Source: a virus
Taxonomy: Duplodnaviria; Caudoviricetes
Strand: one strand, 5' to 3'
IMG/VR virus record: IMGVR_UViG_3300005805_000336
Location: 1 to 29,016 of that record
DNA: 29,016 bases
Within the stretch, counting starts at the first letter, position 1; each line of letters opens with the position of its first letter. Below the pieces are notes generated by a model, which made no database searches, had not been told where the DNA came from, and was given only the letters and a program-made list of their open reading frames with translations. The translations under genes and the position numbers were made by a program. Positions 12,401-28,305 of the stretch are shown in pieces.

Positions 12401-13810
12401 TCCTCGCAGGGCGTGCTCGAGGACACGGCCTACGCATTCATGGTGAGCGGGGCCGCGCTGGACCCGTCGAACAGCCGCCTGGCCGTCGGCATCTACAGCC
12501 TGCCTGCGAGCCTGCAGCAGACCGCGTCGAAGGTCAGGGTGTACGACCTCACGGCGGCCGGGCTATCGACCAGCGTCGACATCACGCCCGACTTCCCGCC
12601 GCCATCTGGCACAGAGATCATCGGCGTCGCGGCGGCCGCCGGCAGCATCTATGCGGTGAACTACGACGGCACCCGCCTCATCCGGTACAACGCTGCAGGC
12701 GCGGAGCAGGCGCGCGTCGACGCGACGCTCTTCCGGCAGTTCGACTGCGATGGCACAGAGCTGATCTTCCCGGCCGCCAGCGGCTTTCAGAGCCGCAACC
12801 CGCTGACACTGGCCGCGATCTCGACCGTGAACTTCGCGCCAGGCGCGACCAGGACAGGGCAACTGCGTCTGGTAGGCGGAGAGGTCGTGTTCATCGGAAA
12901 TCCTCAGTCTGGCGGCAACAGCACGCTGTACCGCTACAGCATGGCCGGCGCGCGCATTGCCAGCTACTCAGCAGTCCCGTTCTCTGGTAGCGGCGCGGGC
13001 TGCGATCTGCAGGCCTTCGGCCCCTACCTGTCGGCCGGCGACAGCGGCACGCCGGCAGTGTTCGACCGGCTGGGCGGTTGGGCCTCTGTGCCGACGGCAG
13101 GCGCCGCCGCGGCCATGGAGAGCGCGCAGCGGCACGATTTCACCACGCAGCACCTCGGCATCCCGCCGTTCTCTTCTGTGGCGCTCCTGCTGCATCTGAA
13201 CGGCGCCAATGGCTCGACATCGTTCCCCGACAGCGGGCCGCTGAACAGGACGGTCACTGGCAGCGGCGGCGCGCAGATCAGCACCGCGCAATCTCGCTTC
13301 GGCGGCGCCTCGGCGAGCTTCAACGGCAGCACGGGCCAGCTCGACACCAACCTCGCGGGCACAGCGTTCGGCACAAGCGACTTCTGTGTGGAATGCTGGA
13401 TCTGGCCAGACAGCCGGGGAATAGGAGACTTCCGTAACATCTTGGGCAACGGCACCGGATTGGGCCAGTTCACGTTTCACCTTAATTCGAACTCGCCTCC
13501 GCAACTCAGGGTATACCTTAGTGGCGGCGTCACTCAGTTGAACGGCGGCACGGTGAGCGCGGACTCATGGTCTCACGTGGCGTTCACCAGACATGGGAAC
13601 ACGTTCAGTATGTTCCTCAACGGTACGCTCGTCGCTGCACACACACAATCAGGAGTCAACTTGAACGCGGCGGATGCCGTTGGGGTCGCTGGTCCGTACG
13701 GGGGTCTGCCGCGGTGGATAGGCTACATCGACGAAGTGAGGGTGACGATCGGCGCGGCCAGGTACACGAGCACCTTCGCCGCCCCGACAGCGCCATTCCC
13801 TGACTTCTGA
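9470..13810 (+). CDS. Central tail fibre / tip attachment protein (J-like) with inserted and terminal LamG-like domains
   Basis: YYMGLHMGLCHGPVD, MNPAHIVYQCLTDPEWGMG and RPYPPGRVRING motifs; C-terminal LLLHLNGANGS...YIDEVRVT LamG-like domain. Confidence 0.92.
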   Translation: MSGGSKTQTVGWRYYMGLHMGLCHGPVDAITEIRVGDRTAWTGEQTASGAIAIDAPDLFGGEEREGGVQGTLDVMMGEPSQAPNSYLVSKLGALVPAFRGLLSTVFRQGYVGANNPYVKPWAFKTRRILQGWHGGSAWYPAKAAIVLAAQSSSVQSQAAFAIFAGADENNAFPYLYTMPGYQPTAATVTEDVASFAPYGVDGNNRAAILDSSPSFDFAQGEDFAIEFEVNAAGSNGGIGSQPANFLFCRTEVNSTTGTGNYTMLRKWSFSENSSIVSFSAPDIAGLVSCPATFGAWTSYRVERNGTTLRMYKNGALVGSNTCTAGAISGPCRIGINGPYQYGVGDIPNTWGGNVGVTSYRNLRIFKGSITPPIIGMNPAHIVYQCLTDPEWGMGYSASIIDDVSFRAAADTFFDEGMGLCLHWARQEQIEAFLQVVLDHAGAQLVQDRRTGLFKLTPIRANYSLASLPVYDESSVRSVDTYQRPGLAGAVNAITVKFNDVATGRRGSVTVHNLANIAAQEETAAQAKAYPGLPTAALALRVAMRDLQAASTPLAKVRMRVNRTAYAALPGDVIRLTWPKLGIADLVLRVLRVDIGQLTDGLIEIEAGEDVFGLPAATYGAQQPSGWVPPNQTPRPMAARLAREATYYEVQRGLSPADLAALPSDAGYVVAAGVRGGPDAIDYSMRTRTGSGAFSEAARGAFVPSGLLSAALTPGAAAATLTGVVDGDLIAAGAYAQIGPEIVRVDSFDAGTGAIAFGRGVMGTVARQHASGTLALFLGDLIADDETQRLDGEVVDVKLLTRTSLGELAEGSAPTDSVVIDSLAARPYPPGRVRINGAAYPATALAPITIAWSHRNRLQQNLEGDESGNIGPEPGVTYAVELRKADTGDLLDRTDGIAGTSYSVPEVAGDFPLRVQLWAMRSDPDALALRSAFEVTRALPSLGSSSVIWRFLIPAGGHVDVQRFYTTTAGIYHQVRRYSSQGVLEDTAYAFMVSGAALDPSNSRLAVGIYSLPASLQQTASKVRVYDLTAAGLSTSVDITPDFPPPSGTEIIGVAAAAGSIYAVNYDGTRLIRYNAAGAEQARVDATLFRQFDCDGTELIFPAASGFQSRNPLTLAAISTVNFAPGATRTGQLRLVGGEVVFIGNPQSGGNSTLYRYSMAGARIASYSAVPFSGSGAGCDLQAFGPYLSAGDSGTPAVFDRLGGWASVPTAGAAAAMESAQRHDFTTQHLGIPPFSSVALLLHLNGANGSTSFPDSGPLNRTVTGSGGAQISTAQSRFGGASASFNGSTGQLDTNLAGTAFGTSDFCVECWIWPDSRGIGDFRNILGNGTGLGQFTFHLNSNSPPQLRVYLSGGVTQLNGGTVSADSWSHVAFTRHGNTFSMFLNGTLVAAHTQSGVNLNAADAVGVAGPYGGLPRWIGYIDEVRVTIGAARYTSTFAAPTAPFPDF

Positions 13811-13896
13811 TCGTGCGCCAATCCTGCGCCACTCGGCACGGGCGAACGCGTGAGAGGTGCACGGATGGCGACGATCAAGCGCGAGTGCCCGTCGTG

Positions 13897-13925
13897 AAAA
13901 GAAACCGGCCGCGCTGGGCGGCCGG
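13897..13925 (-). terminator. Intrinsic terminator of the leftward operon
   Basis: On the minus strand: CCGGCCGC-ccagc-GCGGCCGG followed by TTTCTTTT. Confidence 0.75.
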
Positions 13926-13980
13926 GAAGCCTCATGAGAGGAGGAGACAACCGGACAGGCCGGAGGGCTTTATTCTAGAC

Positions 13981-14319
13981 CTAGGCCATATCCCGCTCTT
14001 CGGCGCGCTGGGCGTAGCTCGGCCGCTTGGCCACGCGGTCCGCCACGGCCTGACCGATTGCGACGCCGCCCAACAGACCGACGCGCTCTCCGTCGATGAC
14101 GACAGCATGCTGGTCGCATCGCGCCTTGGCGGGCACGTACAGCTCGACAACGACGCGCTGCCACAGCTGACCAGGAGCTGGATCGGCTGGGATCGGCGGC
14201 AGCGTGGCTGCCATGGCTTCGCGGCGCGCGTCCATCAACGCGCGGCGTCGCCGACGAGCAGCTGGCGTGTTGCAATGCGCCCAGCGGTTGGGCTTTTGGT
14301 TGCGGCGATGACTTTTCAT
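13981..14319 (-). CDS. Hypothetical protein, last gene of the leftward operon
   Basis: ORF (ATG 14319 or GTG 14325) directly after the cassette 1 stop, followed by the terminator. Confidence 0.6.
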   Translation of the reverse strand: MKSHRRNQKPNRWAHCNTPAARRRRRALMDARREAMAATLPPIPADPAPGQLWQRVVVELYVPAKARCDQHAVVIDGERVGLLGGVAIGQAVADRVAKRPSYAQRAEERDMA

Positions 14320-14336
14320 AGTCACGGTATCTACTA

Positions 14337-14343
14337 GTTAGGA
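14337..14343 (+). other. Left boundary core site (R'-like GTTAGGA) with no upstream attC arm
   Basis: GTTAGG is complementary to CCTAAC of attC1; contains the TAA stop of the cassette 1 gene. Confidence 0.65.
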
Positions 14344-14610
14344 CCTTGCATCACGCAAGCCGTGTGCGTATCCGGCCTCGTACTCGTCTTCGCCGCGCCT
14401 GCGCTGCTGCCAGTCGTTCCAGCAGCGGGTGTGCAGGTACAGGTTCTCTTCCGTGTCGCCCGTATCCAGCGTCAGGCGCACTTCCGGCTCGTGCGCAACG
14501 TGGCCTCTGTAGTGCATCTGCTGGCCGCAGTACCAGCATCGCACCGGCCTAACTGGCGTTTCGAGCCGACCCGCGTCGGCGAGCGGCACCTGTGCGTCTT
14601 CATGCTTCAT
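14338..14610 (-). CDS. Cassette 1 hypothetical protein (CxxC...HxxC metal-binding-like)
   Basis: GGAGG RBS and ATG inside the attC1 loop; CWYC and HTRC motifs; stop in the core site. Confidence 0.7.
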   Translation of the reverse strand: MKHEDAQVPLADAGRLETPVRPVRCWYCGQQMHYRGHVAHEPEVRLTLDTGDTEENLYLHTRCWNDWQQRRRGEDEYEAGYAHGLRDARS

Positions 14611-14645
14611 CTGCGCCTCCTTGGCGGCTCAAACTATCGTTGGGC
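14547..14645 (+). repeat. attC site 1 (99 bp)
   Basis: GCCTAAC-TGGCG-TTTCGAGC...GCTCAAA-CTATC-GTTGGGC. Confidence 0.88.
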
Positions 14646-14647
14646 GG

Positions 14648-14965
14648 CTAGTAGCAGATCACGCGCGCAAGGTGCGCCACGGTCCGCACCTTGATCGTCT
14701 TGCCGCTGGTGCTTGTCACCTCTAGCCCCTTTGCGCCCATGTCGTTCTCCCAGCAGTACCAATCGAGCCATTCGTTGTCGTCGCCAACCTCGCGCCCCAG
14801 GCATGCGGTGTAGGCGTCCCACATACGCCCCATAGCCAGCGCAATCGGCGCTTCTGGGCCGCACTTCGTCAGTGCTTGCAATGCCTCGTACTGGGCCTGC
14901 CAGTCGTCGTACCTGCGCTGCCACTCCAGCAGGCGCGGCGCAATGTCTGCTGGCTTCTTCTTCAT
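14648..14965 (-). CDS. Cassette 2 hypothetical protein
   Basis: 105 aa ORF filling the cassette; WLDWYCWENDMG. Confidence 0.75.
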   Translation of the reverse strand: MKKKPADIAPRLLEWQRRYDDWQAQYEALQALTKCGPEAPIALAMGRMWDAYTACLGREVGDDNEWLDWYCWENDMGAKGLEVTSTSGKTIKVRTVAHLARVICY

Positions 14966-14999
14966 GCGTCTTTTCCCTTCGTGCCTTCGTTCACCAGCC

Positions 15000-15057
15000 G
15001 CCCAACCCCTCGCTCAACTTGACCGCCTACGGCGGCAAGTTAGCTCGAACGTTAGCC
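15000..15057 (+). repeat. attC site 2 (58 bp)
   Basis: GCCCAAC-CCCTC-GCTCAACT-tgaccgcctacggcggca-AGTTAGC-TCGAAC-GTTAGCC. Confidence 0.93.
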
Positions 15058-15291
15058 AGCACGGGCGCGAAGCATGGCGTCAGCACATGCGTAGGCGCTG
15101 GCCGCCCATTCATTGATGATCTGCTCGCCCGTCTTGCCATCCACACACCATGCGCGCCCCATCAATCCCGGCAATGCTTGTGCCGCAAAGTAGTCGCGCA
15201 TCGACATGCCAAAAGAAGTCATTTCTTGTTGTCCTTGGCCGTTCAATTCCCATACCGGGAATGCCGGTCCTCCGTCTTTGTCTGTGCTCAT
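15052..15291 (-). CDS. Cassette 3 conserved phage hypothetical protein (GGPAFP / RDYFAA family)
   Basis: DGGPAFP...GMSMRDYFAAQAL...AYACADAMLRAR; AAGGA RBS; stop in R' of attC2. Confidence 0.82.
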   Translation of the reverse strand: MSTDKDGGPAFPVWELNGQGQQEMTSFGMSMRDYFAAQALPGLMGRAWCVDGKTGEQIINEWAASAYACADAMLRARAG

Positions 15292-15324
15292 GTTGTCCTT
15301 CCTGCCAGCGTTGTTATGGGTGCT

Positions 15325-15376
15325 GGCTAACCCTTCGCTCAAGCCGACCTTCGGCGGCTTAGCTCAAACGTTAGGT
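15325..15376 (+). repeat. attC site 3 (52 bp, aadA-attC-like)
   Basis: GGCTAAC-CCTTC-GCTCAAGC-cgaccttcggcg-GCTTAGC-TCAAAC-GTTAGGT. Confidence 0.93.
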
Positions 15377-15377
15377 T

Positions 15378-16100
15378 TCACAACAGCCCCTCTTGCACAG
15401 GCTGTCGCGGCTCTTCGGGCGGCAGTAGCGTGCCCTGGGCCTGGGCGCGGCTGATGCGCTCGCAGGCGATGTCGAAATACGGGCGGTGGATCTCCACGCC
15501 GATGAAGCGGCGCCCCATCGTCACGGCGGCAACTCCTGTGCTTCCGCTGCCCATGTAGGGGTCAAAGATCACGTGCGCCTTGGGCATTTGCTCAAGGCAC
15601 CAGCGCATCACGCCTTGCGGCTTCGTTGTCGGGTGCCAGCGCTGGCCGCCTTCCTCGCCCGCCTTCACGCATGCCACGCCCTTCCACAAGTACCGGATCA
15701 CGTTTCGCTTAATCTTCAGGTTCGTCCATGCGTACTCCGCGTCGGCGAAGCTGTCATTCGGGCCAATGCCCGTGTGCTTGTCCCAGGCCACCAGCGTCCC
15801 GCCTTCCGGCAGCCTGGCGCGGTAGTGGTCGGCGCCAAACATCAGCACCGCCGGGAAACGCAGCAGCGGTGTCGGATCAAACGGCACGGTGTCTTCGTGA
15901 ATCGGTTTGTTCGCGTTCTTGCCAAGTGTGCCAAGGCGCTTCATGGTCAAGCTGACCGGAGAGGCCCCGCCGCCTCCGTGCACGTACCCAATGCCATATG
16001 GCGGGTCGGTCACGCATGCGTCGGCCTGCACAAGCGGCAGCACCTCGCGGCAGTCCCCGTGCCACAGTTCCGCGTTCCCGATCACCACTTTTTCAGCCAT
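15378..16100 (-). CDS. Cassette 4 DNA N6-adenine/N4-cytosine methyltransferase (beta class)
   Basis: TDPPYG precedes HPTTKP and FDPYMGSGSTG...FIGVEI. Confidence 0.92.
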   Translation of the reverse strand: MAEKVVIGNAELWHGDCREVLPLVQADACVTDPPYGIGYVHGGGGASPVSLTMKRLGTLGKNANKPIHEDTVPFDPTPLLRFPAVLMFGADHYRARLPEGGTLVAWDKHTGIGPNDSFADAEYAWTNLKIKRNVIRYLWKGVACVKAGEEGGQRWHPTTKPQGVMRWCLEQMPKAHVIFDPYMGSGSTGVAAVTMGRRFIGVEIHRPYFDIACERISRAQAQGTLLPPEEPRQPVQEGLL

Positions 16101-16127
16101 CGTCATCCTTCGATATATCGCTGTGAA

Positions 16128-16196
16128 ACCTAACACTACGCTGCACCGGACCCAGCCCGGCAGGCCGGGCCGGTCCGGTGAGCTACAGCGTTAGGC
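16128..16196 (+). repeat. attC site 4 (69 bp)
   Basis: ACCTAAC-ACTAC-GCTGCACC...GGTGAGC-TACAGC-GTTAGGC. Confidence 0.9.
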
Positions 16197-16388
16197 GCTT
16201 TTCATCCAAGCCACCAGATACAGCATCGTGCTGCTGCCGTGATCGCTGCAGCTCTGGCTTTGCCACGAGTCGCCGTCCCAGTAGACCCAGCAGAAGTGCT
16301 CGCCAGCATCGGTTTTGCCCCAGTTGTTGCCTTTTGCCCAAACGGGGCGGCCGTCCTTGGGCGCCGTCTCAATCGGTTGCCATTCCAT
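16191..16388 (-). CDS. Cassette 5 DUF551-like protein
   Basis: MEWQPIETAPKDG...AWM; GAGG RBS; stop in R' of attC4. Confidence 0.8.
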   Translation of the reverse strand: MEWQPIETAPKDGRPVWAKGNNWGKTDAGEHFCWVYWDGDSWQSQSCSDHGSSTMLYLVAWMKSA

Positions 16389-16412
16389 CGTTTCCTCGCT
16401 TCGGCGCCGCGC

Positions 16413-16512
16413 GCCTAACCCCTCGCTCAAGCAGACCGCGAACGGCGGCCACGTTTTCTGTCTCCGTCCAAGCCTAAGCGCCGTTCACGGCAGCTTAGCT
16501 CGAACGTTATGC
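16413..16512 (+). repeat. attC site 5 (100 bp)
   Basis: GCCTAAC-CCCTC-GCTCAAGC...GCTTAGC-TCGAAC-GTTATGC with internal stem GAACGGCG/CGCCGTTC. Confidence 0.92.
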
Positions 16513-17612
16513 GTGTTGCTCATGCCACCAGTGAGCATGCGCCAGGCTGTGGCTGCACACCGGGGCACTTGTCCATTGCCGAGGGCTTTAAGTCTGTCCA
16601 CCCGATGGGCCACCCCATCAGCCACTCGACCCACGTCGGGTTCAGCTTCCCACCAACTTGGTCGGCCAATCCCACCTGGGGATCGGTCGGCTTCCTGCCG
16701 GTCAGCTTCACCACCGAGCTCTTGGGCTCCGTCACCACGCTGGTGGGCGTGCGCCACATGCGCGCCGCCGCGTCGTTCAAGTTCGAGCGCCGGCCGTTCA
16801 AACTCTGCGCGCCCTTGTAGCGTTCCGGTATCCCAATGCGATGGTCGCTGTTCTTGGGTGTCGGCCACCTGGCCACCGCCACCGCCAGCGGCTGCTGCAA
16901 GTTGATGCCCTGCGCCGCCTTCTCGGCCTGGCGCCGCTCCCAGTTCTCCACGTTGCCGCTCTGCTTTGCATCGCCGGCATTCGGCGTCGGCCACATGGCC
17001 GCACTCGCCGCAAGGCCACGGTTGCTGCTCCTGCCGTCCGGCCGCATGTGCCGCACCGTGCCCGTCTCCGTCACGTACAGGTTCCCGCCCGTGATCGGCC
17101 GCGCGTCGGTCGCGCAGGGTGTCGGCACCCACAAGCCAGAATCGGTCGCGCTGGTGGGGGGCGCCAACGTCGGCAGCTCCCAGCACTGTCCAGCGGCAGT
17201 CATACCCGAGCGCGGCCAGGTCACCGAGCACTCGTCCGAGTCCCCGAGTAAGGAGCGCTGGGCTGTTCTCCACGAAGCAGAAGCGGGGTCGAACCTCGCC
17301 AATGATCCGCGCCATGTGGGTCCACATTCCGCTGCGCTCGCCGTCGATGCCTGCGCCCTTGCCGGCCACGCTGATGTCCTGGCAAGGAAAGCCCCCCGAA
17401 ACCACGTCAACAAGCCCGCGCCAAGGTCGTCCGTCAAAGGTGCGAACGTCGCTCCAGACCGGGAAAGCCGGGAGAAGTCCTTCGTTCTGGCGGGCGGCAA
17501 GTACGCAAGCGGCGTAGGGTTCCCACTCCACAGCGCACACGCAGCGCCACCCGAGCAACTTGCCCGCGAGTATTCCGCCACCAGCGCCTGCGAAAAGAGC
17601 CAACTCATTCAT
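16485..17612 (-). CDS. Cassette 6 DNA cytosine-5 methyltransferase, main chain
   Basis: LFAGAGG (motif I), GGFPCQ (IV), VENS (VI), HQRDRF (VIII), LKALGNGQVP (X). Confidence 0.93.
   Translation of the reverse strand: MNELALFAGAGGGILAGKLLGWRCVCAVEWEPYAACVLAARQNEGLLPAFPVWSDVRTFDGRPWRGLVDVVSGGFPCQDISVAGKGAGIDGERSGMWTHMARIIGEVRPRFCFVENSPALLTRGLGRVLGDLAALGYDCRWTVLGAADVGAPHQRDRFWLVGADTLRDRRAADHGREPVRDGDGHGAAHAAGRQEQQPWPCGECGHVADAECRRCKAERQRGELGAAPGREGGAGHQLAAAAGGGGGQVADTQEQRPSHWDTGTLQGRAEFERPALELERRGGAHVAHAHQRGDGAQELGGEADRQEADRSPGGIGRPSWWEAEPDVGRVADGVAHRVDRLKALGNGQVPRCAATAWRMLTGGMSNTHNVRAKLP
16520..17608 (-). CDS. Alternative-frame partner chain of the C5 methyltransferase (WPTP repeats plus motif IX-like segment)
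   Basis: 362 aa same-strand overlapping ORF; four W(P/R)TP-type repeats and LNPTWVEWLMGWPIGWT; true start uncertain. Confidence 0.7.
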   Translation of the reverse strand: MSWLFSQALVAEYSRASCSGGAACALWSGNPTPLAYLPPARTKDFSRLSRSGATFAPLTDDLGAGLLTWFRGAFLARTSAWPARAQASTASAAECGPTWRGSLARFDPASASWRTAQRSLLGDSDECSVTWPRSGMTAAGQCWELPTLAPPTSATDSGLWVPTPCATDARPITGGNLYVTETGTVRHMRPDGRSSNRGLAASAAMWPTPNAGDAKQSGNVENWERRQAEKAAQGINLQQPLAVAVARWPTPKNSDHRIGIPERYKGAQSLNGRRSNLNDAAARMWRTPTSVVTEPKSSVVKLTGRKPTDPQVGLADQVGGKLNPTWVEWLMGWPIGWTDLKPSAMDKCPGVQPQPGACSLVA

Positions 17613-17637
17613 ACATCTCCACGCTTCGGAACCACAC

Positions 17638-17710
17638 GCATAACACCTCGCTCAAGGCGACCCGCTACGGGCTAGCGCCCTTCGCGGGCGCCTTAGCTCC
17701 AGCGTTGGGC
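17638..17710 (+). repeat. attC site 6 (73 bp)
   Basis: GCATAAC-ACCTC-GCTCAAGG...CCTTAGC-TCCAGC-GTTGGGC. Confidence 0.92.
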
Positions 17711-17919
17711 GTCTTGCGTTCGTTCCACGGCCGCAGCGCCTCGTCCTCTGCGCGGCTGCCGGATCGCAGCAGGCGAGCGAATGGCCCTGTTGCGAGGCAT
17801 TGGCCGCATTGCACGCTCACCGTCCGCTGCATGTGGTTCCAGTTGAAGGTGTGGCGCGGGTCGCGCGTGCCGGCGTTTCCGCAATGGGGGCACGGCAGCA
17901 CGTCAGTGGAACTCGTCAT
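17665..17919 (-). CDS. Cassette 7 Lar-like zinc-ribbon protein
   Basis: LPCPHCG...VQCGQCLATGP...WNER pattern; GGAG RBS; reads through into attC6. Confidence 0.72.
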   Translation of the reverse strand: MTSSTDVLPCPHCGNAGTRDPRHTFNWNHMQRTVSVQCGQCLATGPFARLLRSGSRAEDEALRPWNERKTPNAGAKAPAKGASP

Positions 17920-18151
17920 CGTCGTCTCTCCATTGGTGGCACAGGCACTCGCAGTCGTCGTCGTGCTGCTCGCGGCTGTCAATGTCGCGGTCGTAGCGCA
18001 GCAGCGCGCACAGCCGCGCCGAGTCGCTCACGCAGGCGCAGCCGTAGGTGCCGCGCGGGCCGTCTTGGTCGCGCTCCGGCACCGGCCGCCCAACCCCTCG
18101 CTCAACCGGAGAGCCCACAGCGGGCGCCTCGGCGTTCGTTGCATCCGTCAT
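17903..18151 (-). CDS. Cassette 7 Cys-rich hypothetical protein starting inside attC7
   Basis: ATG overlaps the upstream stop (ATGA); CAC...C...CECLCH. Confidence 0.65.
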   Translation of the reverse strand: MTDATNAEAPAVGSPVERGVGRPVPERDQDGPRGTYGCACVSDSARLCALLRYDRDIDSREQHDDDCECLCHQWRDDDDEFH

Positions 18152-18181
18152 GTGGGCTCCCGGTTAGCTCGAACGTTAGGG
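18088..18181 (+). repeat. attC site 7 (94 bp)
   Basis: GCCCAAC-CCCTC-GCTCAACC-ggagagcccaca...tgtgggctccc-GGTTAGC-TCGAAC-GTTAGGG. Confidence 0.92.
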
Positions 18182-18549
18182 CTCTCTTCGTCGGGCGGGC
18201 TGTAGTCCCACTTAGCAATCAGCGCCATCGCTTGCGGCGGCAGCGGGTTCGCCACCAGTTCGGCCCGCGCACGCACCCAGCCGGCGCAAATCTTGCCATC
18301 CAGCGGGCTGTGGCACTGAAACGGCTTTCCTTCCGCCGCAGCTTTCAGAAAGTCCATCTGCGTCTGCAAGCACCCGTTCGGCACGCTTCCAGGCTGGCAT
18401 GCGCAGGTCTTGCACATGTCGTCGCGCAGTCCTGGGCCTTTCACGCCGTAGAGCCCCATTTCCACCAGCCGGGCGCGGCCAAGCTCAGCCAGGCGCGCGG
18501 CGCTCTTTCCCATTGCGCGGCCCTCGGGTGTCACTCTGCTGTGTGTCAT
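18148..18549 (-). CDS. Cassette 8 hypothetical protein (CxxCxC...CH...CAGW)
   Basis: AAGGA RBS; MCKTCAC, PFQCH and ICAGW motifs; reads through into attC7. Confidence 0.78.
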   Translation of the reverse strand: MTHSRVTPEGRAMGKSAARLAELGRARLVEMGLYGVKGPGLRDDMCKTCACQPGSVPNGCLQTQMDFLKAAAEGKPFQCHSPLDGKICAGWVRARAELVANPLPPQAMALIAKWDYSPPDEESPNVRANREPT

Positions 18550-18577
18550 GCCTATATCCTTTCGCTTCGGCTGCCAG

Positions 18578-18636
18578 CCCTAACTGGTCGCTCAACCGGG
18601 CCGCCGAAGGCGGTCCGGTTAGCTCCAACGTTGGGC
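18578..18636 (+). repeat. attC site 8 (59 bp)
   Basis: CCCTAAC-TGGTC-GCTCAACC-gggccgccgaaggcggtcc-GGTTAGC-TCCAAC-GTTGGGC. Confidence 0.93.
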
Positions 18637-18642
18637 CGCCCG

Positions 18643-18843
18643 CTACTCGCTGCGCTGCTGCTTGCGCAACTTTGCGGCATCGCGCGTCACCAGCTCGCGC
18701 ACGCGATCCGGCCCGATCAGCAGCGCATCGGCCCACTGCGCGTCGGTCATGCGGATCTTCCGCACGGCCATCACTTCGCCGCTGGAGTCCTTGGGCTTGC
18801 GCCCTTGGCCTCTTCCGGGGCCGCCGCGCTTTGGTTGTTCCAT
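18643..18843 (-). CDS. Cassette 9 small DNA-binding protein (RGG.GRGQGRKP plus RHH-like)
   Basis: KRGGPGRGQGRKP...VRKIRMTDAQW. Confidence 0.7.
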   Translation of the reverse strand: MEQPKRGGPGRGQGRKPKDSSGEVMAVRKIRMTDAQWADALLIGPDRVRELVTRDAAKLRKQQRSE

Positions 18844-18989
18844 CCTGCCACCTCTTCCACGCACGTCTCGAACTGGCTGTCTGTCATCCCGGTGGTGTCC
18901 ACGTCTTCGGGATGGGTGTCATGCGGGTGGCGCCAGGCGAAGCGGCCTTGCCGCAGCACCAGCCGCCACCCTTCGGCGGCAAGGCTCAC
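18771..18989 (-). CDS. Cassette 9 small hypothetical protein
   Basis: GTG overlaps the upstream TGA; AAGAAGG RBS-like sequence. Confidence 0.5.
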   Translation of the reverse strand: MSLAAEGWRLVLRQGRFAWRHPHDTHPEDVDTTGMTDSQFETCVEEVAGWNNQSAAAPEEAKGASPRTPAAK

Positions 18990-19147
18990 GCCTTCTTGCT
19001 CCGCAGCTCGTCGTAAACCTCGCCGGCCAGCTTCATAAACGTACCTTCGCCGAGCACTGCATCGATGGCCTGCTGCACGGTCATGCCGGCTTGCATCTTG
19101 GCGAGGATCTTGGCGCTGATCGTGGCGTTCTTGAAGACTTGGTTCAT
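18986..19147 (-). CDS. Cassette 9 small hypothetical protein (53 aa)
   Basis: MNQVFKNATISAKIL...; ATG about 30 bp downstream of the -10 box. Confidence 0.65.
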   Translation of the reverse strand: MNQVFKNATISAKILAKMQAGMTVQQAIDAVLGEGTFMKLAGEVYDELRSKKA

Positions 19148-19177
19148 GTCGTGCTGCGTTGCGTTGTCGATGGGTGT

Positions 19178-19206
19178 ACTGTAGCCACGCAATCCAACAT
19201 CGTCAA
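19178..19206 (-). promoter_or_regulatory. Sigma70-type promoter internal to cassette 9
   Basis: TTGACG-17 nt-TACAGT on the minus strand, with an A-tract upstream. Confidence 0.72.
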
Positions 19207-19239
19207 GCACTTTTTGTGGCCGCGCAATCAAGTCGCGCA

Positions 19240-19273
19240 CAAGCTCCGGTGGTCGCCTGCAAGCTCCGGTGGT
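19240..19273. repeat. 14-bp direct repeat with 20-bp period
   Basis: CAAGCTCCGGTGGT at 19240-19253 and 19260-19273. Confidence 0.85.
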
Positions 19274-19294
19274 TGCGCGCTCCGGCAAGGCCCG

Positions 19295-19367
19295 GCCCAA
19301 CAAAGCCAGTGCAGCCGACTCGCTACGGCCTTCGGCCTTCGCTCACGGCTGACTGCCGGCGTTAGGC
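19295..19367 (+). repeat. attC site 9 (73 bp)
   Basis: GCCCAAC-AAAGCC-AGTGCAGC...GCTGACT-GCCGGC-GTTAGGC (left spacer is 6 nt). Confidence 0.85.
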
Positions 19368-19715
19368 GCTCAGTGGCGGCACAGGCAGCCAATGCGTCGG
19401 GTTCGGCCCGAGCGGGTTGCTGTCGGCCGTTGTCGCATCGTCGTAAACCCATCCGCTCCACTCTTCGCCGTCAAGGTAGCTGGCAGCCACCCACGGCGTA
19501 TAGCCCGGCGTGGTGTCGTTCACCAGAACCATCGTGCCGTCGTGTGGCGCAGTGGCTATCGGCAACCACGCGCCTAACCCCTCGCTGAACGCCGCGGCGA
19601 CGCAGCCCTCGGTCGCGCAGTAGACCGGCTGCGAGCCGAGCAGTCCCGGTCCGATGACGAGCGAGCCGAGGAAGGTGTCTGCGCCGCAGTGGGCGCACTT
19701 GCCGACGGGGCGCAT
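19362..19715 (-). CDS. Cassette 10 fusion: Cys-containing N-terminus plus DUF551-like domain
   Basis: ATG overlaps the upstream TGA; CAHC..CATEGC, then FSEGLG (half attC), then WLPIATAPHDG...PTHWLPVP; stop in R' of attC9. Confidence 0.72.
   Translation of the reverse strand: MRPVGKCAHCGADTFLGSLVIGPGLLGSQPVYCATEGCVAAAFSEGLGAWLPIATAPHDGTMVLVNDTTPGYTPWVAASYLDGEEWSGWVYDDATTADSNPLGPNPTHWLPVPPLSA
19572..19591 (+). repeat. Truncated attC (R'' and L'' only)
   Basis: GCCTAAC-CCCTC-GCTGAACG with no matching L'/R' downstream. Confidence 0.75.
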
Positions 19716-20017
19716 CAGTGCCCCCCTTTCGCCGCCTCGGCTATGTCGGAAGCGGTTTGTGGCGCCAGAACGAATCTCACCCACTTGCGCGGGTTGCGGC
19801 GCTGCCGAAGGCCATTCTCGCGAAGCCAAATGGCGTATGCGGTTGTCTTCAGGCCGAGCCCGATCTCTTCCATGTGCGCGACCTCGACCTCCTCCCAATC
19901 CGTTTTTTCGACCACAAGGACCTTCAGGATGGTCTGCGCGAGTAGGTCAGGCTGGCCGCGTATCGGCTTTCTGATATCAGCAAGCCGCGCCCAGGCGGCT
20001 CGTGCTGCTTCGTTCAT
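19715..20017 (-). CDS. Hypothetical protein
   Basis: AAGGAG RBS; translationally coupled at both ends. Confidence 0.7.
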   Translation of the reverse strand: MNEAARAAWARLADIRKPIRGQPDLLAQTILKVLVVEKTDWEEVEVAHMEEIGLGLKTTAYAIWLRENGLRQRRNPRKWVRFVLAPQTASDIAEAAKGGH

Positions 20018-20316
20018 CAGTGTGCTCCTTTCGCCGCCTCAGCCTCTTTCGCGGCCATCCTGCGGCCGTAGCCGATGCAGGCGGCCATGATGCCCTCGGA
20101 CTGCACGAGGCCGACCTGGGCGCCCATCGCGGCCGTGATGGCGGCCATGAGGCCGTGCCAGAAGAGCAGGCGCTCGGCGTGCGTCATGCCATCGCATGCG
20201 ACCTTCGTGACGAGCGGAAGCACGGCGTCGGCCACCTGAGCGCCGACCATCATCGGCGGCGCCATGATGTCGATCTCGAAGTCGTGTTGCGCGAGCGGTT
20301 CGGGTTCGGTGCTCAT
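20017..20316 (-). CDS. Hypothetical protein
   Basis: MSTEPEPL start; stop overlaps the next ATG. Confidence 0.7.
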   Translation of the reverse strand: MSTEPEPLAQHDFEIDIMAPPMMVGAQVADAVLPLVTKVACDGMTHAERLLFWHGLMAAITAAMGAQVGLVQSEGIMAACIGYGRRMAAKEAEAAKGAH

Positions 20317-20453
20317 CGGTGCGGCCCTTTCCACTGCTGCTGGTCGTCGCGATCCATGCTCATCACCAAGCATGCCATGAGCATCACGCCAAGCGTGCCG
20401 CCGATGGAAAGGCCAAGCGCGCCTCAGGCGAGCGCGAGGCCGGTGAATCTCAC
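20313..20453 (-). pseudogene. Small membrane protein gene interrupted by an in-frame TGA
   Basis: MRFTGLALA*GALGLSIGGTLGVMLMACLVMS...; coupled to both neighbours (GTGA, ATGA). Confidence 0.5.
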
Positions 20454-20659
20454 GACCTCTTCCCCTTTGCCGGCCGCGTCTCCAGGCCCCGCAGGAACTC
20501 GTCGACGGTGGCGCGGCGCCAGGACAGGCGGCGGGTGTTCAAGCGCGGCGGCAGCCAGTCGGCGCCGCCACGCGCGACGGCGCTGCGGATGGCGGCCTCG
20601 GTGCGGCCGAGCAGCTTTGCCATCTCGGGCACGTATAGGACTTGCGCTTCGGTGCTCAT
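20450..20659 (-). CDS. Excisionase/AlpA-like HTH protein
   Basis: VLYVPEMAKLLGRTEAAIR...LPP...RRLSWRRATVDEFL. Confidence 0.78.
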   Translation of the reverse strand: MSTEAQVLYVPEMAKLLGRTEAAIRSAVARGGADWLPPRLNTRRLSWRRATVDEFLRGLETRPAKGKRS

Positions 20660-20669
20660 GGGATCCTCG

Positions 20670-21188
20670 TCAGGTGGTGGAAGTGTTGCCGGCTGCGGCC
20701 GCGCCGCCGTCGCCGTCGAACAGGTCGGGCGGCCCTTCGATCTCGACGCGCGCGCCGTCTTGCACGCGCTTCGCCAGCTCGGCGATGTCGCCGCTGCTCG
20801 GATAGAGCGACACGCTGCAGGTGACGTCGACAGTGCCGCCGTCGCGCGGCTGCAGGGCGAACTTCTTCACCTCGCACCCGGCGAAGCTGGCGCCGTCGAT
20901 CTTCACGCTGGCGCTGGTGATCGCGTTCGCGTAGGCCACCGGGCGCATGAAGCCGTTGCGCGCGGCCATGATCCCGCCCGACTCGGCGCGCCATAGGAAG
21001 GCTTCGAGGGCCTCGTCGAAGTAGGCGCAGAGCGCACGGTCTACCTTCGTGAAGGCGAGCTTCACGTCGACGGCCAGGATCTTCTCGTCGTCGGGGCCTT
21101 CCTTGCGCACGTTGAGGTGCTTGATCTCGGCGATGCCGGCCAGGCGGAAGACCGGGCGCTTCGGGGTGGTGGTGGTGTCGGTGCTCAT
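20670..21188 (-). CDS. Conserved phage hypothetical protein
   Basis: 172 aa with phage-like codon usage; HLNVRKEG..E..LAVDVKL. Confidence 0.78.
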   Translation of the reverse strand: MSTDTTTTPKRPVFRLAGIAEIKHLNVRKEGPDDEKILAVDVKLAFTKVDRALCAYFDEALEAFLWRAESGGIMAARNGFMRPVAYANAITSASVKIDGASFAGCEVKKFALQPRDGGTVDVTCSVSLYPSSGDIAELAKRVQDGARVEIEGPPDLFDGDGGAAAAGNTSTT

Positions 21189-21191
21189 GGC

Positions 21192-21626
21192 CTAGAAGGG
21201 AATGTCGTCGTCCATGTCGTCGAAGCCGGTGCCCGTGCCCTTCGCAGCGGGCCGCGGCGCCGGTGCAGCTGCGCGCGGTGCCGGTGCGGGCGCGGCCTGG
21301 CGCTGCTCGCCGCCTTCGCGGCTGCCGGCGAACTGCAGGTCGTCGATCCGCACGGCCAGCTTCCAGCCCGGCGAGCCGTCGCGCTTCTCGAACGTCTCGA
21401 CGCACGGCTCTCCGATGATCTCGATCTGAGTGCCCTTCTTCAGGTAGTCGGCCAGCTTCTCGGCGCGCGTGCCCCACAAGGTGCAGTCGATCCACTGCGT
21501 CGGCTGCTCGCCGTCGACTTTGCGGCCGTGGTTGTAGGCCGCGGAGAAGGCCGCGACGGGCGTGCCGTCGGGGCTGTAGCGCACCTCGGCGTCGCGGCCG
21601 AGGCGGCAGAGTCCGATCAGTTTCAT
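21192..21626 (-). CDS. ssb: Single-stranded DNA-binding protein
   Basis: RLGRDAEVRY...YLKKGTQI...; acidic tail DDDIPF. Confidence 0.95.
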   Translation of the reverse strand: MKLIGLCRLGRDAEVRYSPDGTPVAAFSAAYNHGRKVDGEQPTQWIDCTLWGTRAEKLADYLKKGTQIEIIGEPCVETFEKRDGSPGWKLAVRIDDLQFAGSREGGEQRQAAPAPAPRAAAPAPRPAAKGTGTGFDDMDDDIPF

Positions 21627-21628
21627 GC

Positions 21629-21817
21629 TCAGTGCACTCCTTGGACGTTGACGAGGATCGAGGCGTCGACCACGGCGTAGGCCGCGCGCTCGGCGCCGCG
21701 CTTCGTGGCGTAGGCCTCGCCGCTGTCGGCCACCGTGCGGCCGGTCGCGGCCTTCATGCGCCAGCGCCAGCCGTCGGCGGCCTTGTAGACGGTGATGGTG
21801 TAGGTCTTGAATTTCAT
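21629..21817 (-). CDS. YegP/DUF1508-like protein
   Basis: YKAADGWRWRMKAATGRTVADSGEAYATKRGA. Confidence 0.8.
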   Translation of the reverse strand: MKFKTYTITVYKAADGWRWRMKAATGRTVADSGEAYATKRGAERAAYAVVDASILVNVQGVH

Positions 21818-21869
21818 GCTGCCGGTCTTTCGTGGTGCTGGGGCGGCGCGAGGCCGCCCTGGGTTGTGA

Positions 21870-22583
21870 TCAGCGGCGAGCCGCCAGGGTCTGCTTCTCG
21901 AACACGCGCACGCCCGGCAGGTTCGTCGCCATTCCGGTCGCACGCACCTGGGCGCGCAGCCTCACGGAGTCGACGGCCAGCAGCGCCAGCAGCTCGGGGC
22001 GCTGCGCGACGTGCTGAACCAGCGCCAGCAGGTCGACGACCTCGAAGTCGACGGTGGTGCTGGTGCTGATGCCCTTCACGGCCGGCGGCGCCGGCACGGC
22101 CGCGGGAGGCGCGACGACCATCTGCGCGACCTGATCCTTCACGGCAGCCTCGCCGGTGCGGCCCTCGGCGGCTAGGGCCTTCGCCTCGGCCTCGAGGCGC
22201 TCGCGCTCGGCTTGAGCGGCACGCTCGCGCGCTAGGCGATCCTCCTCGGCCTTGCGCTGCTCCTCGCGCTGCCAGCCGAGCATCTTCTGCTTCAGGATGC
22301 CCTCGGCCTGCTCGAGCAGCGCGATCGGCGGCTTGAACAGCGCCATGACGGCGGCCTTCGCGGCGTCGAGCGGCTTCGTGATGCCGAGGCGCTTCTCGTT
22401 CAGCGCGTCGATCTTGCGCTTGATCGCCTTGAGCTCGTCGGCCGCGATCTCGAATGTTGCGGCGTCGACGACCTCGAAGGACTGCACGAGGTCGAGCGCG
22501 CTGGCGGCGCCGCGCTGCAGGTCGGCGCTGCTGGGCGCTGCGATCGCGACGCTAGCGGGGATGGTGGCGGTGGTGTCGTTCAC
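21870..22583 (-). CDS. Coiled-coil phage protein of the recombination module
   Basis: GTG overlaps the exonuclease stop; ITKPLDAAK..., LPGVRVFE. Confidence 0.75.
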   Translation of the reverse strand: MNDTTATIPASVAIAAPSSADLQRGAASALDLVQSFEVVDAATFEIAADELKAIKRKIDALNEKRLGITKPLDAAKAAVMALFKPPIALLEQAEGILKQKMLGWQREEQRKAEEDRLARERAAQAERERLEAEAKALAAEGRTGEAAVKDQVAQMVVAPPAAVPAPPAVKGISTSTTVDFEVVDLLALVQHVAQRPELLALLAVDSVRLRAQVRATGMATNLPGVRVFEKQTLAARR

Positions 22584-23203
22584 TTGGTGGCTTCCTTCCA
22601 GGAGTGCAGCGCCAAGCATGCCATGAAGCATGCTGAATCGCTGTGATTCGTGAATCGGTGCAAACGATAGGTGCCGTCGTCAAACAGATGAACGCTGGCG
22701 CGGCGGATCTGAGAGCCTGGTCCGAGGTCGGCGTCGTTGACGTGCAGCAGCTCCTCGTAGGCAGCCAACTGCACGCCGAAGGACGGGTGCGGCTGCAGGC
22801 CGGTCTTGCGGTCGACCAGCACGATGTCGGTGCCGTGCCCGCGCCACGCGCGCATCCGCACCAGGCCGTCAAGCGTGCCGGCGTAGCGAAGCGTCGGGTG
22901 GTAGAGCCGCTGCTCGGTGGCGAGCACCTCGACGTCGTTCTCGATCTTGAAGCGGCGCCAGGCGTGCACGCAAGCCATGACGCGCGCATCGGTGCCGTCG
23001 TCGTCGAGCTCGCCCAGGTCGTCGAGTTCGCAGGCTAGGTGCACGGCCAAACCGAAGGCGCGCGCGGCTTCGAGCAGCTGCGGCGGCACCGCGCTGAAGT
23101 CAGGGCCGATGCCGGCGCCCTTGAGCAGCTGGGTGACGCTCGGCAGCCTCACGCCGTCGAGGGCGTAGGTGTGCGAGGCCTCGTCGAATGAGAAGAAGGG
23201 CAT
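22580..23203 (-). CDS. PD-(D/E)XK exonuclease
   Basis: FDEASHTY, LPSVTQLL, G..VH, YAGTLD...VDRKTG...QLAAY. Confidence 0.85.
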   Translation of the reverse strand: MPFFSFDEASHTYALDGVRLPSVTQLLKGAGIGPDFSAVPPQLLEAARAFGLAVHLACELDDLGELDDDGTDARVMACVHAWRRFKIENDVEVLATEQRLYHPTLRYAGTLDGLVRMRAWRGHGTDIVLVDRKTGLQPHPSFGVQLAAYEELLHVNDADLGPGSQIRRASVHLFDDGTYRLHRFTNHSDSACFMACLALHSWKEATK

Positions 23204-24078
23204 CACGCGCCCCGCTTCAGCAGCTCGGCCTTCACCGTGTCGAAGTCGGCCTTCGACAGCTTGCCGGCCTCGATCACCACTCCATGCAAGCCGACGGCCG
23301 CGGCCACCTCGGCCAGATCGGCGCCGATGCTGCGCGCCTTGTTGCCCAGGTAGGCGATCTCGCCCTGGCCGACCATGCGGTCGCCGCTAGGCGCGGGCGC
23401 GGCGGCCTGGACCGGCGCCGTCACAGCCGCATTCTCCTCGGCGCTCGCGCCGGCGCTAGTGGCAGGCGTCGCGTCGACTACGTCGGCCGGCGCCGGTGCG
23501 GCGCTGGGCCGTGGCTTGCGCGCCACCGTCGGGCCTGCAGGCGGCTGAACGACAGTGGTGCCGTCGGACTGGGTGGCGACGACGTCGAGATCCTGCGCTT
23601 CCTCGGTGACGATCGCGCCGCCCAGCGCTGCCGGGAAGGTCGCGCGCACGCCCTCGGCGATGCACCGGGCGCGCAGCATGGCGCGCGGTGTCCGCTTCCA
23701 ATTGTCCTTGTTCAGCAGGCCGGCGCGGGCAGCCATGTCGAGGTTCCACTCGATCCGCACGCTGCCGCCCTTCGGGTGGCTGAACGTGCCGCTCACGACC
23801 TGCTCGGTGAAGTCGTGCCACTGCACGCTGCCGCCGGCCTGCTGAAAGCGGGCGAGCACGCTGTGCGTCTTGCGCGCCGGGCGGCCTTGGATGACGTCGT
23901 AGTCCTGCGCCACGCTGGCCGGATGCAGGCCCTCGGCGTCGGCGATCAGCATCAGCGCGTAGGCTTGCTGCGGCGTCTGGATGCCGAACAGCTTCGACTC
24001 GGCCAGGGCGCCGGCCATGTCGCGCATGTCGGTGAGGGAGAAGGCGCGCTGCTCGCGCACCGCAGGTAGGTTGCTCAT
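23203..24078 (-). CDS. RecT/Red-beta-like single-strand annealing protein
   Basis: GLHP....YDVIQGRP, AARAGL..KDNWKRTPRAMLRARC...RATFP; adjacent to exonuclease and SSB. Confidence 0.75.
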   Translation of the reverse strand: MSNLPAVREQRAFSLTDMRDMAGALAESKLFGIQTPQQAYALMLIADAEGLHPASVAQDYDVIQGRPARKTHSVLARFQQAGGSVQWHDFTEQVVSGTFSHPKGGSVRIEWNLDMAARAGLLNKDNWKRTPRAMLRARCIAEGVRATFPAALGGAIVTEEAQDLDVVATQSDGTTVVQPPAGPTVARKPRPSAAPAPADVVDATPATSAGASAEENAAVTAPVQAAAPAPSGDRMVGQGEIAYLGNKARSIGADLAEVAAAVGLHGVVIEAGKLSKADFDTVKAELLKRGA

Positions 24079-24130
24079 GGGTGGTTGTCGTCCTGTGATG
24101 CCGCCGGTCTATCGCCGAGCGCGCATCGCA

Positions 24131-24159
24131 ATGCTACATCGTAGCGGAGCGCGGCGCAA
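24131..24159 (-). promoter_or_regulatory. Leftward early promoter (PL-like)
   Basis: TTGCGC-17 nt-TAGCAT on the minus strand. Confidence 0.55.
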
Positions 24160-24300
24160 CTTGCAGTAGCATGCAAGGCGAAAAAATGCCGGGACAGCGG
24201 CCCCGGCTTTCACAGTCTTCTTGCACTTCGCCCCTACATCAGCAGCGCCAGCGCCGCGGTGGTATCCGAGTGCATAGGTGGGGATTTTGTTCCTCGGGGC

Positions 24301-24329
24301 TTGCAATATCAGGCTATCGGAAATAGCAT
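24301..24329 (+). promoter_or_regulatory. Rightward early promoter (PR-like)
   Basis: TTGCAA-17 nt-TAGCAT upstream of the Cro-like gene. Confidence 0.62.
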
Positions 24330-24355
24330 CGCGCTGCAACTATGAAGGGGAACAC

Positions 24356-24589
24356 ATGGCAGACAACGCGACGGCGCATCAGGTGGTGCGCGCAGCCGTC
24401 GGCGCAGCTGGTGGCGTCTCGAAGGTGGCCGAGCACTTCGGGATCTCCGCGGCATCGGTGAGCGGCTGGCTTGACCGCGGCAGCGTGCCGGCCGGCAGGA
24501 TCAAGGCGCTGTGCGATCTCGGCGGCAACGTCGTGACGCCGATGCAGGTGCTCGACGCGCTGGCGCGCGAGGCGAGGGCTGCAGCGTGA
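24356..24589 (+). CDS. Cro/YdaS-like HTH regulator
   Basis: AAGGVSKVAEHFGISAASVSGWLDRGSVPA; first gene of the rightward operon. Confidence 0.85.
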   Translation: MADNATAHQVVRAAVGAAGGVSKVAEHFGISAASVSGWLDRGSVPAGRIKALCDLGGNVVTPMQVLDALAREARAAA

Positions 24590-24912
24590 AGCGCCCGCGC
24601 CTATACGTCTCCGGCCCGATGACCGGCAAGCCGCTGCTGAACTTCCCCGCCTTCCACGAAGCGGCGGCCCAGCTGCGCGCCGCTGGCTTCGAGGTGGTGA
24701 ACCCCGCCGAGCTCAACCCTGAACCGAACGCGCGGTGGCTCGACTGCATGCGCGCGGATATCAAGGCGCTCGTCGACTGCGACGGCGTGGCCCTGCTGCC
24801 CGGGTGGACGGAAAGCCGCGGCGCGAAGCTCGAGGCCACGATCGCCGAGGGCCTGGGCATGACGCTGTGGGCGGTGCCCGAGTGGCTGCGCAGCGACGTG
24901 AGGGCCGCCTGA
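24586..24912 (+). CDS. DUF4406 family (nucleoside deoxyribosyltransferase-like) protein
   Basis: LYVSGPMTG...NFPAF...NPAE...CDGVALLPGWTESRGAKLE. Confidence 0.9.
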   Translation: MKRPRLYVSGPMTGKPLLNFPAFHEAAAQLRAAGFEVVNPAELNPEPNARWLDCMRADIKALVDCDGVALLPGWTESRGAKLEATIAEGLGMTLWAVPEWLRSDVRAA

Positions 24913-27477: not shown

Positions 27478-27633
27478 GCGCGCGCCAGACACGCGCGACC
27501 TGACCGCATCCGAGGCCCGCATGCTCGCCTGCGCGACGATGCCGCTCGACACCCTGCGCCAGCAGGCGCAGGCTGAGGTGCATGACGCGTGGGCGCTGCT
27601 GCGGCGCCTCGGCATCCGCTCGCAGGTGCCTTG

Positions 27634-28305
27634 ATGGATGCGGCCAGCGCGGCGCTCATGGCCAATCTGCCGATGGTGAGGCGAATCGCGCACAAGATGC
27701 TCGCGACCCTGCCGGCAAGCGTTGAGATCGACGATCTCATGCAGGCCGGCATGATCGGACTACTGGAGGCCGTGGAGCGTTACGACCCAAGCCGCGGCGC
27801 ATCGCTACAGACATACGCCGAACCGCGAATCGCCGGAGCCATGATGGACATGCTCCGATCGTTCGACGAGGCGCTGCGCAGCGACAGGAGCGCGCAGCGG
27901 CGAGCGGCGCTGGCGCAGCAGCTTCTCGAGCACCGCCTTGGCCGGGCCGCAACGACGGCGGAGATCGCTGGCGAGATTGGCATGTCGGTGGAAGGCCTTG
28001 ACGCTCTGCGATACGCGGCGCCGGCGGCGGCAGCTATGGATGACGCCGACGGCATCGATCTGATTCCGGCATGCCCGCTGGCCAATCCAGAGACGTGGCT
28101 GGAACTGAAACAGCAGGTGGAAGCAGCAGTCTCGGCATCCGGTCAACTGAGCGAGCGGGAGCAGGCCGTCCTGAGCATGTTCTACGACGACGACATGACG
28201 CAGGCCGCGATAGCCGAACGGTTCGGAGTCTCAGATTCGCGGATCTGCCAACTGCGGGCCTGCGCGTTGTCCAAGGTCGCCATGGCGGTGAGACTGGCCG
28301 CGTGA
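27634..28305 (+). CDS. FliA/WhiG-family (sigma28-like) RNA polymerase sigma factor
   Basis: LPASVEIDDLMQAGMIGLLEAVERYD...RIAGAMMDMLR (region 2); LSEREQAVLSMFY..DMTQAAIAERFGVSDSRICQL (region 4). Confidence 0.9.
   Translation: MDAASAALMANLPMVRRIAHKMLATLPASVEIDDLMQAGMIGLLEAVERYDPSRGASLQTYAEPRIAGAMMDMLRSFDEALRSDRSAQRRAALAQQLLEHRLGRAATTAEIAGEIGMSVEGLDALRYAAPAAAAMDDADGIDLIPACPLANPETWLELKQQVEAAVSASGQLSEREQAVLSMFYDDDMTQAAIAERFGVSDSRICQLRACALSKVAMAVRLAA

Follow-up and report, generated by a model that had tools for sequence, protein, structure and literature searches.

An attC array of reversed polarity in a tailed phage from lake and freshwater metagenomes

The subject of this report is an array of integron-type attC sites carried by a tailed phage (Duplodnaviria; Caudoviricetes). 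The DNA analyzed, hereafter referred to as the window, is 29,016 nucleotides (nt) long and constitutes the entire IMG/VR record IMGVR_UViG_3300005805_000336; the source runs that contain it are lake and freshwater metagenomes. The credible cassette genes of the array all lie on the attC bottom strand, and thus each is inverted relative to its recombination site. That reverse polarity is the trait of a distinct phage cassette class is strongly supported. When attC sites of the same type were surveyed, the genes of 106 of 142 viral cassettes were called on the bottom strand and none on the top strand (5 ambiguous, 31 uncalled), whereas 116 bacterial cassettes gave 5 bottom, 86 top, 2 ambiguous, and 23 uncalled. 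The non-redundant viral cassettes divided as 92 bottom, 0 top, 3 ambiguous, and 27 uncalled. PHROG matches were found for 26 of the 122 best bottom-strand open reading frames (ORFs) versus none of the 114 best top-strand ones, and Pfam matches for 40 of the 86 top-strand bacterial genes. The first-pass annotation of this DNA had proposed such a class from the single array and had stated that inverted genes are a minority in ordinary arrays; both statements are upheld by the survey.

The survey employed one attC pattern, which provided 32 viral and 51 listed bacterial-genome matches, with one overlapping viral locus dropped. Outside the window, the gene strand was called with our own three-periodic Markov coding model. 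The five bacterial exceptions include a PIN/FitA toxin-antitoxin cassette (L044), three cassettes on one prophage-like contig, and a bottom-strand ORF that has no Pfam match, the PliI match of that cassette being on the top strand. One phage carries two opposite arrays, and in both the genes are on the bottom strand and follow the local gene direction. Between the 257 viral and 116 bacterial cassettes compared, there is one shared pair only, and it involves the prophage-like contig.

In the window, a rule-based scan for the order R''-spacer-8-nt L''-variable terminal structure (VTS)-7-nt L'-spacer-R' identified nine attC sites, all on the plus strand and within 4.8 kb. At the same cut-off, 20 shuffles of the window gave four matches, or 0.2 per window, and the scan called the attC of aadA1, in a class 1 integron record, on the strand of its gene. 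In all nine sites the 8-nt L'', which carries the extra base, is positioned on the left, in keeping with the first-pass annotation. The resemblance it had drawn between site 3 and an aadA-type attC read on the plus strand was confirmed by direct comparison with the class 1 aadA1 record, which was used in place of a blastn search of site 3 against plasmids that returned nothing useful.

Its assignment of the attC top strand to the plus strand is supported by a covariance model trained on 21 bacterial sites, namely that of aadA1 and 20 of 56-64 nt that close top-strand cassettes. Eight of the nine sites score 26.6-61.3 bits on the plus strand (E <= 4e-5), the site at 14547 is weak with 11.4 bits (E 0.38), and no site scores above 11.2 bits on the minus strand. 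Since the 20 training sites come from loci found with a pattern derived from the window, the model tests the strand and not the independence of the site type. Folding agrees for the same eight sites, whose bottom strands display z values of -2.3 to -6.2, and is unremarkable at the site at 14547, with a z of -0.1. R'' is complementary to R' of the preceding site in eight of eight cases, and to R' of its own site in one of eight. The attC anatomy is therefore complete with respect to R''-L''-VTS-L'-R', extra base, and bottom-strand fold, with the site at 14547 being weak in both model and fold.

The sites, all on the plus strand, are attC 1 at 14547..14645 (60-nt VTS), attC 2 at 15000..15057 (61.3 bits), the aadA1-like attC 3 at 15325..15376 (58.2 bits), attC 4 at 16128..16196 (40.3 bits), attC 5 at 16413..16512 (26.6 bits), attC 6 at 17638..17710 (53.2 bits), attC 7 at 18088..18181 (54-nt VTS, 40.4 bits), attC 8 at 18578..18636 (46.3 bits), and attC 9 at 19295..19367 (34.3 bits). 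A tenth attC is a remnant of which only the left half is present, at 19571-19590. With several attC sites on the same strand and no intI nearby, the array constitutes a cluster of attC sites lacking integron integrase (CALIN); an intI beside the array, as in a complete integron, is lacking here and is present in other phages of the class.

The cassette genes are located on the minus strand, where their PHROG and Pfam matches lie. Ten of the 11 best plus-strand ORFs have no PHROG match, and the remaining one has a weak match (E 3e-6) that is antisense to the C5 methyltransferase gene. The usual cassette layout, a top-strand gene ending at R'', is not observed. The first-pass annotation had placed the stops of the inverted genes at the GTT end of the cassette, and a TAA does lie within GTTA at all four positions that it named, 14338, 15052, 16191, and 19362. 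These represent only four of ten cassettes, and a general rule to that effect was rejected: other stops lie 7-13 nt inside the cassette (14648, 15378, 16520, and 18643), and other ORFs run into the adjoining attC (16485, 17665, and 18148).

Cassette 1 (14338..14610) encodes 90 residues, with both its Shine-Dalgarno sequence and ATG inside its own attC and its stop in GTTA. Cassette 2 (14648..14965) encodes 105 residues with a weak match to phrog_28377, and cassette 3 (15052..15291) encodes 79 residues matching phrog_2201 and also ends in GTTA. The gene of cassette 4 (15378..16100) encodes an N6/N4 DNA methyltransferase (phrog_67, 1e-41; PF01555), and that of cassette 5 (16191..16388), with its stop in GTTA, encodes 65 residues with no family match. 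A C5 cytosine methyltransferase (phrog_363, phrog_1008; PF00145) occupies cassette 6 in two overlapping frames, 16485-17612, which extends into attC 5, and 16520-17608. Note that these frames overlap fully on the same strand, have starts 4 nt apart, and both have methyltransferase PHROG matches. Cassette 7 carries a first gene of 82 residues (17903..18151) with its ATG inside attC 7, and a second gene (17665..17931) that encodes a Lar-like restriction alleviation protein (phrog_599; PF14354) and runs into attC 6. The 133-residue gene of cassette 8 (18148..18549) has no family match and ends inside attC 7, where the ATGA at 18148-18151 overlaps its stop with the start of the first gene of cassette 7. 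Cassette 9 (18643..19147) contains three short ORFs, 18643-18864, 18771-18989, and 18986-19147, with no family matches. The tenth cassette (19362..19715) is common to G001, a complete 47-kb relative of 99.8% identity, and its 117-residue gene, which stops in GTTA, reads through the attC remnant.

Comparison with relatives delineates the region that varies. The match to G001 breaks off at 14342 and starts again at 19360; between these flanks G001 has six different attC sites. The variable region is bounded by the G|TT at 14337 on its left and by the G|TT at 19361 on its right, the latter (19361/19362) lying in attC 9. Contigs from four other studies share these borders, ending at 14339-14342 and beginning at 19360. 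Behind the same left site, six different first cassettes are found in eight records (six metagenome contigs, G001, and the window); in five of the six contigs the shared flank is at least 460 nt long (99%), in the sixth only 59 nt, and one of the six first cassettes is known from 9 nt only. A copy of cassette 1 (92%) lies mid-array in G002, behind a different attC and joined at G|TT. There are 47 near-identical cassette pairs, and those that are 99-100% identical with different neighbors break at G|TT, in 8 left and 4 right junction pairs, several of which share one cassette such that not all are independent. The unit that moves is thus the expected one, beginning with the TT of one core and ending with the G of its own attC. 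On account of this turnover and of the G|TT junctions, 14337 is taken as the point where cassettes enter, with the broken tenth cassette as the fixed far end of the array. Joints in reads were dropped as evidence of excision, for their sides are 20-36 nt in attC-linked rows and they are likely repeat artefacts.

The attI-like entry site (14305..14344, plus strand; crossover G|TT at 14337/14338) has no adjoining intI, is not an attC, and has only GTT in common with the attC sites. In its behavior, with six first cassettes, it fits an attI, and its sequence matches no IntI-linked attI. A related motif heads the arrays in L007 and L147, and with these the site forms a separate small family for which no partner was found in the genomes searched. 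In several arrays without IntI, the left site closes with a CCTAAAACAC|GTT-like word similar to attI1 and to the attI sites of hosts. A short entry-site pattern had 19 viral matches; 16 of these, in low-GC contigs with no attC, were discarded as chance. The ORF at 13981-14325, beyond the entry site, is no remnant of an intI.

Other phages of the class do encode the integrase. An IntI above the curated cut-off is present in 3 of 31 viral array records, and in none of the five complete ones. In G019 and in G016/G008 the order is phage integrase, intI, attI, array, and early genes, with all genes on one strand. The phage IntI that accompanies the same site type is full length, contains the IntI-specific insertion, and is 53% identical to IntI1. 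Among the best 80 of 86 viral IntI loci, the attC sites lie upstream of intI on the opposite strand, and the 99 cassettes were called as 68 bottom, 1 top, 2 ambiguous, and 28 uncalled (non-redundant: 53, 1, 2, and 22). A quick tree was built from 53 viral, 80 bacterial, and 3 Xer proteins; in it the viral/bacterial label changes 6 times versus 44 when labels are shuffled. A smaller, more careful tree was also made. Viral clades of 21, 19, and 6 proteins are observed, with values of 96-99 in the Shimodaira-Hasegawa-like approximate likelihood ratio test (SH-aLRT). Because the clade of 19 is nested among mostly proteobacterial enzymes, several acquisitions of IntI are likely. A phage origin of integrons is not claimed: four viral IntIs are basal in the Xer-rooted tree, but on long branches with open forks, and only three of nine Xer loci were recovered for the outgroup.

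Three further observations were made in these records. In L182, an IntI-bearing phage, one cassette occurs twice in the array with different neighbors on both sides. In L129 (5117-5506), an N-terminal fragment of intI lies at the far, top-strand 3', end of the array on the strand opposite to the cassette genes. Finally, in L157 (Virus Rctr41k, KX853513), a gene annotated as xerD (4680-5678) is IntI-like and groups with the viral IntIs, with one attC called downstream of it.

To judge from these comparisons, the phage array is probably acted upon by an IntI that recombines ordinary bottom-strand attC hairpins and, because the phage encodes none, is supplied in trans. The source could be the host or a co-infecting or resident IntI-bearing phage. 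Cassettes would enter the early arm at 14337 by ordinary bottom-strand attC recombination, and each gene would therefore travel with the attC that precedes it as the gene is read. Transcription would reach the array at the end of the leftward early operon and run on to the entry site, and the newest cassette would thus lie farthest from the promoter, at a site that serves acquisition rather than switching on.

An alternative, which we regard as unlikely, is that the attC-like repeats serve as short homologies for the RecT-like/exonuclease system of the phage, by which cassettes and arrays are swapped with no integrase. The RecT-like and exonuclease genes do lie upstream of the array, the window and G001 differ over the entire array, the attC of cassette 4 has been swapped in one relative, and the genome has no IntI. 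Yet six different first cassettes follow an entry site that shares only GTT with attC, the breaks coincide with G|TT and mismatches occur a few bases to its left, and the hairpin, extra base, and R'/R'' pairing are all maintained, three features that homologous exchange would not require. Homologous exchange of whole arrays through identical flanks is likely as a companion process. Less probable still is recombination by some other tyrosine recombinase, for example a small Xer-type enzyme, the array being integron-like in appearance only. The missing IntI would be so explained, as would an entry-site motif that has no match among the bacteria searched; the sites, however, belong to the class 1/betaproteobacterial attC type, a full IntI with its specific insertion is found in phages whose sites are of that type, and G001 shows no PF00589 or PF00239 match, with no tyrosine or serine recombinase found there. 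Phages with captured host integrons have been described (Qi et al. 2023, PMC9892861, in its available text) and inverted toxin-antitoxin cassettes occur in host arrays, but a bacterial array captured once in reverse and now a static relic, inverted by chance, is highly improbable given the phage-type cargo, the single shared cassette pair, the ordinary layout of the captured integrons in M16-3 and Va p16 (most annotated genes opposite intI), and, already contradictory to it, turnover between phages that are 99.5% identical.

Returning to IntI-driven exchange, the balance of the evidence tips slightly towards a broader proposal, namely that phages run a mirror-image integron system, with IntI lineages of their own, attI-like sites, and a large pool of reversed cassettes, which is shared with IntI-less free riders and separate from the host pool. 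With about the same modest leaning, the two pools would be kept apart because the cassettes of each side are antisense in the arrays of the other. New cassettes would arise when a start-bearing attC is joined to a new gene body at R''. Why inversion is favored is less certain. Phage cargo, such as methyltransferases and Lar-like proteins, might go unexpressed at the host Pc promoter, and host defense cassettes might likewise go unexpressed in the phage operon. Inversion would also place the recombining strand on the non-template strand and, if a fork moves leftward from the replication genes, on the lagging-strand template, which may increase turnover; a lagging-template effect is reported in the available text of Richard et al. 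2024 (PMC13108822).

The origin of cassettes is addressed by the long attC sites. Of 161 long viral attC sites, 65 hold a Shine-Dalgarno sequence, an ATG, and a frame of at least 60 codons on the bottom strand. The same holds for 1 of 55 long sites from bacteria and for none of 104 short ones from viruses. In the window, ATG 14610 and ATG 18151 are starts of this type, and the long loops would supply the ribosome site, the start codon, and the first 15-25 residues. Short ORFs within attC, on the top strand, are described in the available text of PMC8876359. A site 94% identical to attC 1 heads an unrelated gene in L242. Such sites suggest, on sequence grounds, that cassettes are born when a start-bearing attC moves to a new gene, possibly via top-strand cleavage or short-homology exchange.

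Several points weigh against the scheme of trans-acting IntI and mirror-image arrays. A six-frame search of the window, G001, and G002 with the IntI profile found no IntI, and the case for cassette exchange rests on comparison of sequences between records. The window and G001 share no complete cassette, which simple one-end insertion does not predict. A 98% copy of cassette 4 lies mid-array in L241 with another attC of its own, the match stopping close to the start of the gene. In nine pairs, long attC sites that are 88-100% identical precede unrelated genes, and the identity ends at R''; three of these pairs lie within one locus. The swapped attC and these R''-ending pairs imply a second process acting beside the G|TT exchange at R'. 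The entry-site motif was not matched in 401 genomes of the Rubrivivax order. As for polarity, the coding model leaves about a quarter of the cassettes uncalled, the viral sample covers one attC type because it was drawn with the window-site pattern, and the array of phage TJE1 has ordinary polarity. The AT-rich sites of P12002L were missed by the scan, and no polarity call applies there.

With regard to expression, the first-pass annotation had invoked a leftward phage promoter at 24131..24159. The gene layout fits expression from a leftward early operon; the promoter itself (minus strand, TTGCGC-17-TAGCAT) is a weak match below the threshold of the consensus scan. Over 13700-24600 that scan yielded a single match, where 0.6 are expected by chance: a sigma-70-like candidate in cassette 9 (19178..19206, minus strand; TTGACG-17-TACAGT). 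No promoter-like site, and so none of the Pc type, was detected on the plus strand of the same interval. Other promoters are possible, since the phage has its own sigma factor, a sigma-70-family protein encoded at 27589-28305. Gene order alone leads us to infer that the cassettes are expressed from the leftward operon. The further suggestion that phage cassettes would be silent in a host integron is plausible if they are promoterless, and doubtful for cassette 9. Upstream of the promoter-like site in that cassette, at 19240-19275, there is a short direct repeat (CAAGCTCCGGTGGT twice), a possible operator.

Clusters of attC sites in phages have already been published. Qi et al. 2023 (PMC9892861) describe 17 phage CALINs and recombination of phage attC with attI1 by IntI1, with the bottom strand preferred. 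The array here is like theirs in being an attC cluster without intI in a phage, with methyltransferase cargo. Gene inversion, an entry site, turnover among kin, and phage-specific IntI clades, all encountered here, are absent from the available text of that paper. The TJE1 array, of ordinary polarity by our scan, is one of those in that paper. Their array in MW202573 has five attC sites on the minus strand and genes annotated on the plus strand, and so belongs to the inverted class; that text is silent on the matter, and the figures or Dryad file may show it. A literature search recovered no report of reversed cassettes in phages or of phage clades of IntI, with subscription journals mostly outside its coverage.

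Like bacterial integrons, whether class 1 or sedentary chromosomal, the array exhibits the attC anatomy, the G|TT crossover, and the R'/R'' pairing within a cassette. The IntI-bearing phages share with them the intI-attI-array order and an intI opposite to the attC top strand. Unlike bacterial integrons, the phage genes occupy the bottom strand and point to the entry site with no role for Pc, the attC precedes the gene and often holds its start codon, the cargo is of phage type, and no intI is present here. The inverted toxin-antitoxin cassettes of bacterial arrays (e.g. L044) likewise have the gene on the attC bottom strand. Inverted bacterial cassettes are a minority and carry their own promoters. 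The toxin-antitoxin inversions are a small part of host arrays; here inversion is the rule, and most cassettes have no visible promoter. The entry site also resembles attG secondary sites, the GWT positions outside att sites at which IntI can insert cassettes according to the available text of Loot et al. (10.1101/2022.09.11.507474), in having GTT. Its repeated reuse, and the relatives that head arrays in L007 and L147, give it the behavior of a dedicated attI-like site, unlike attG.

In the remainder of the window, tail genes on the plus strand extend to 13810. Upstream of the array, PHROG matches on the minus strand identify a leftward early arm (20017..24078) with a RecT-like gene, two exonuclease-family genes, SSB, and small genes, which runs in the same direction as all of the cassette genes. 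Cro-like, replication, and sigma-factor genes follow on the plus strand from 24278. No repressor gene lies between the divergent arms (24078-24278), the complete relative G001 has no integrase, and the phage may accordingly not be temperate. An HNH endonuclease gene (2187-2693) sits inside the tail block. At 13163-13880 the C-terminus of the tail fiber and the DNA that follows are replaced in G001 and L241, and L240 and L243-L245 have a 63-nt insertion after 13162; these changes have no attC sites at their borders. RNA runs contain 5-11% of the sequence words of the window, as contigs only. An Rfam search of the window gave no match, and matches of the array to cultured phage records were limited to the methyltransferase genes. 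Elsewhere in the class, Acb2/Tad1 hairpin-domain matches, one below and one above the cut-off, occur in first or inner cassettes (L126, 8529-8897; L067, 1497-1769), which are candidates for anti-defense genes.

Integrons are usually seen as bacterial devices and lately as stores of anti-phage defense. If the present interpretation is true, phages hold a site-specific engine for the mosaic accessory regions that are usually ascribed to illegitimate recombination, and their cassettes would provide a bounded catalogue of counter-defense candidates, including methyltransferases and Lar-like and Acb2/Tad1-like proteins. The reading of attC matches in phages would change, and odd recurring protein ends would be explained as encoded by attC arms. 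Such phages offer a natural setting for the transfer of attC sites to new genes, and, if the mirror-image arrangement is real, the origin of cassettes would become directly testable.

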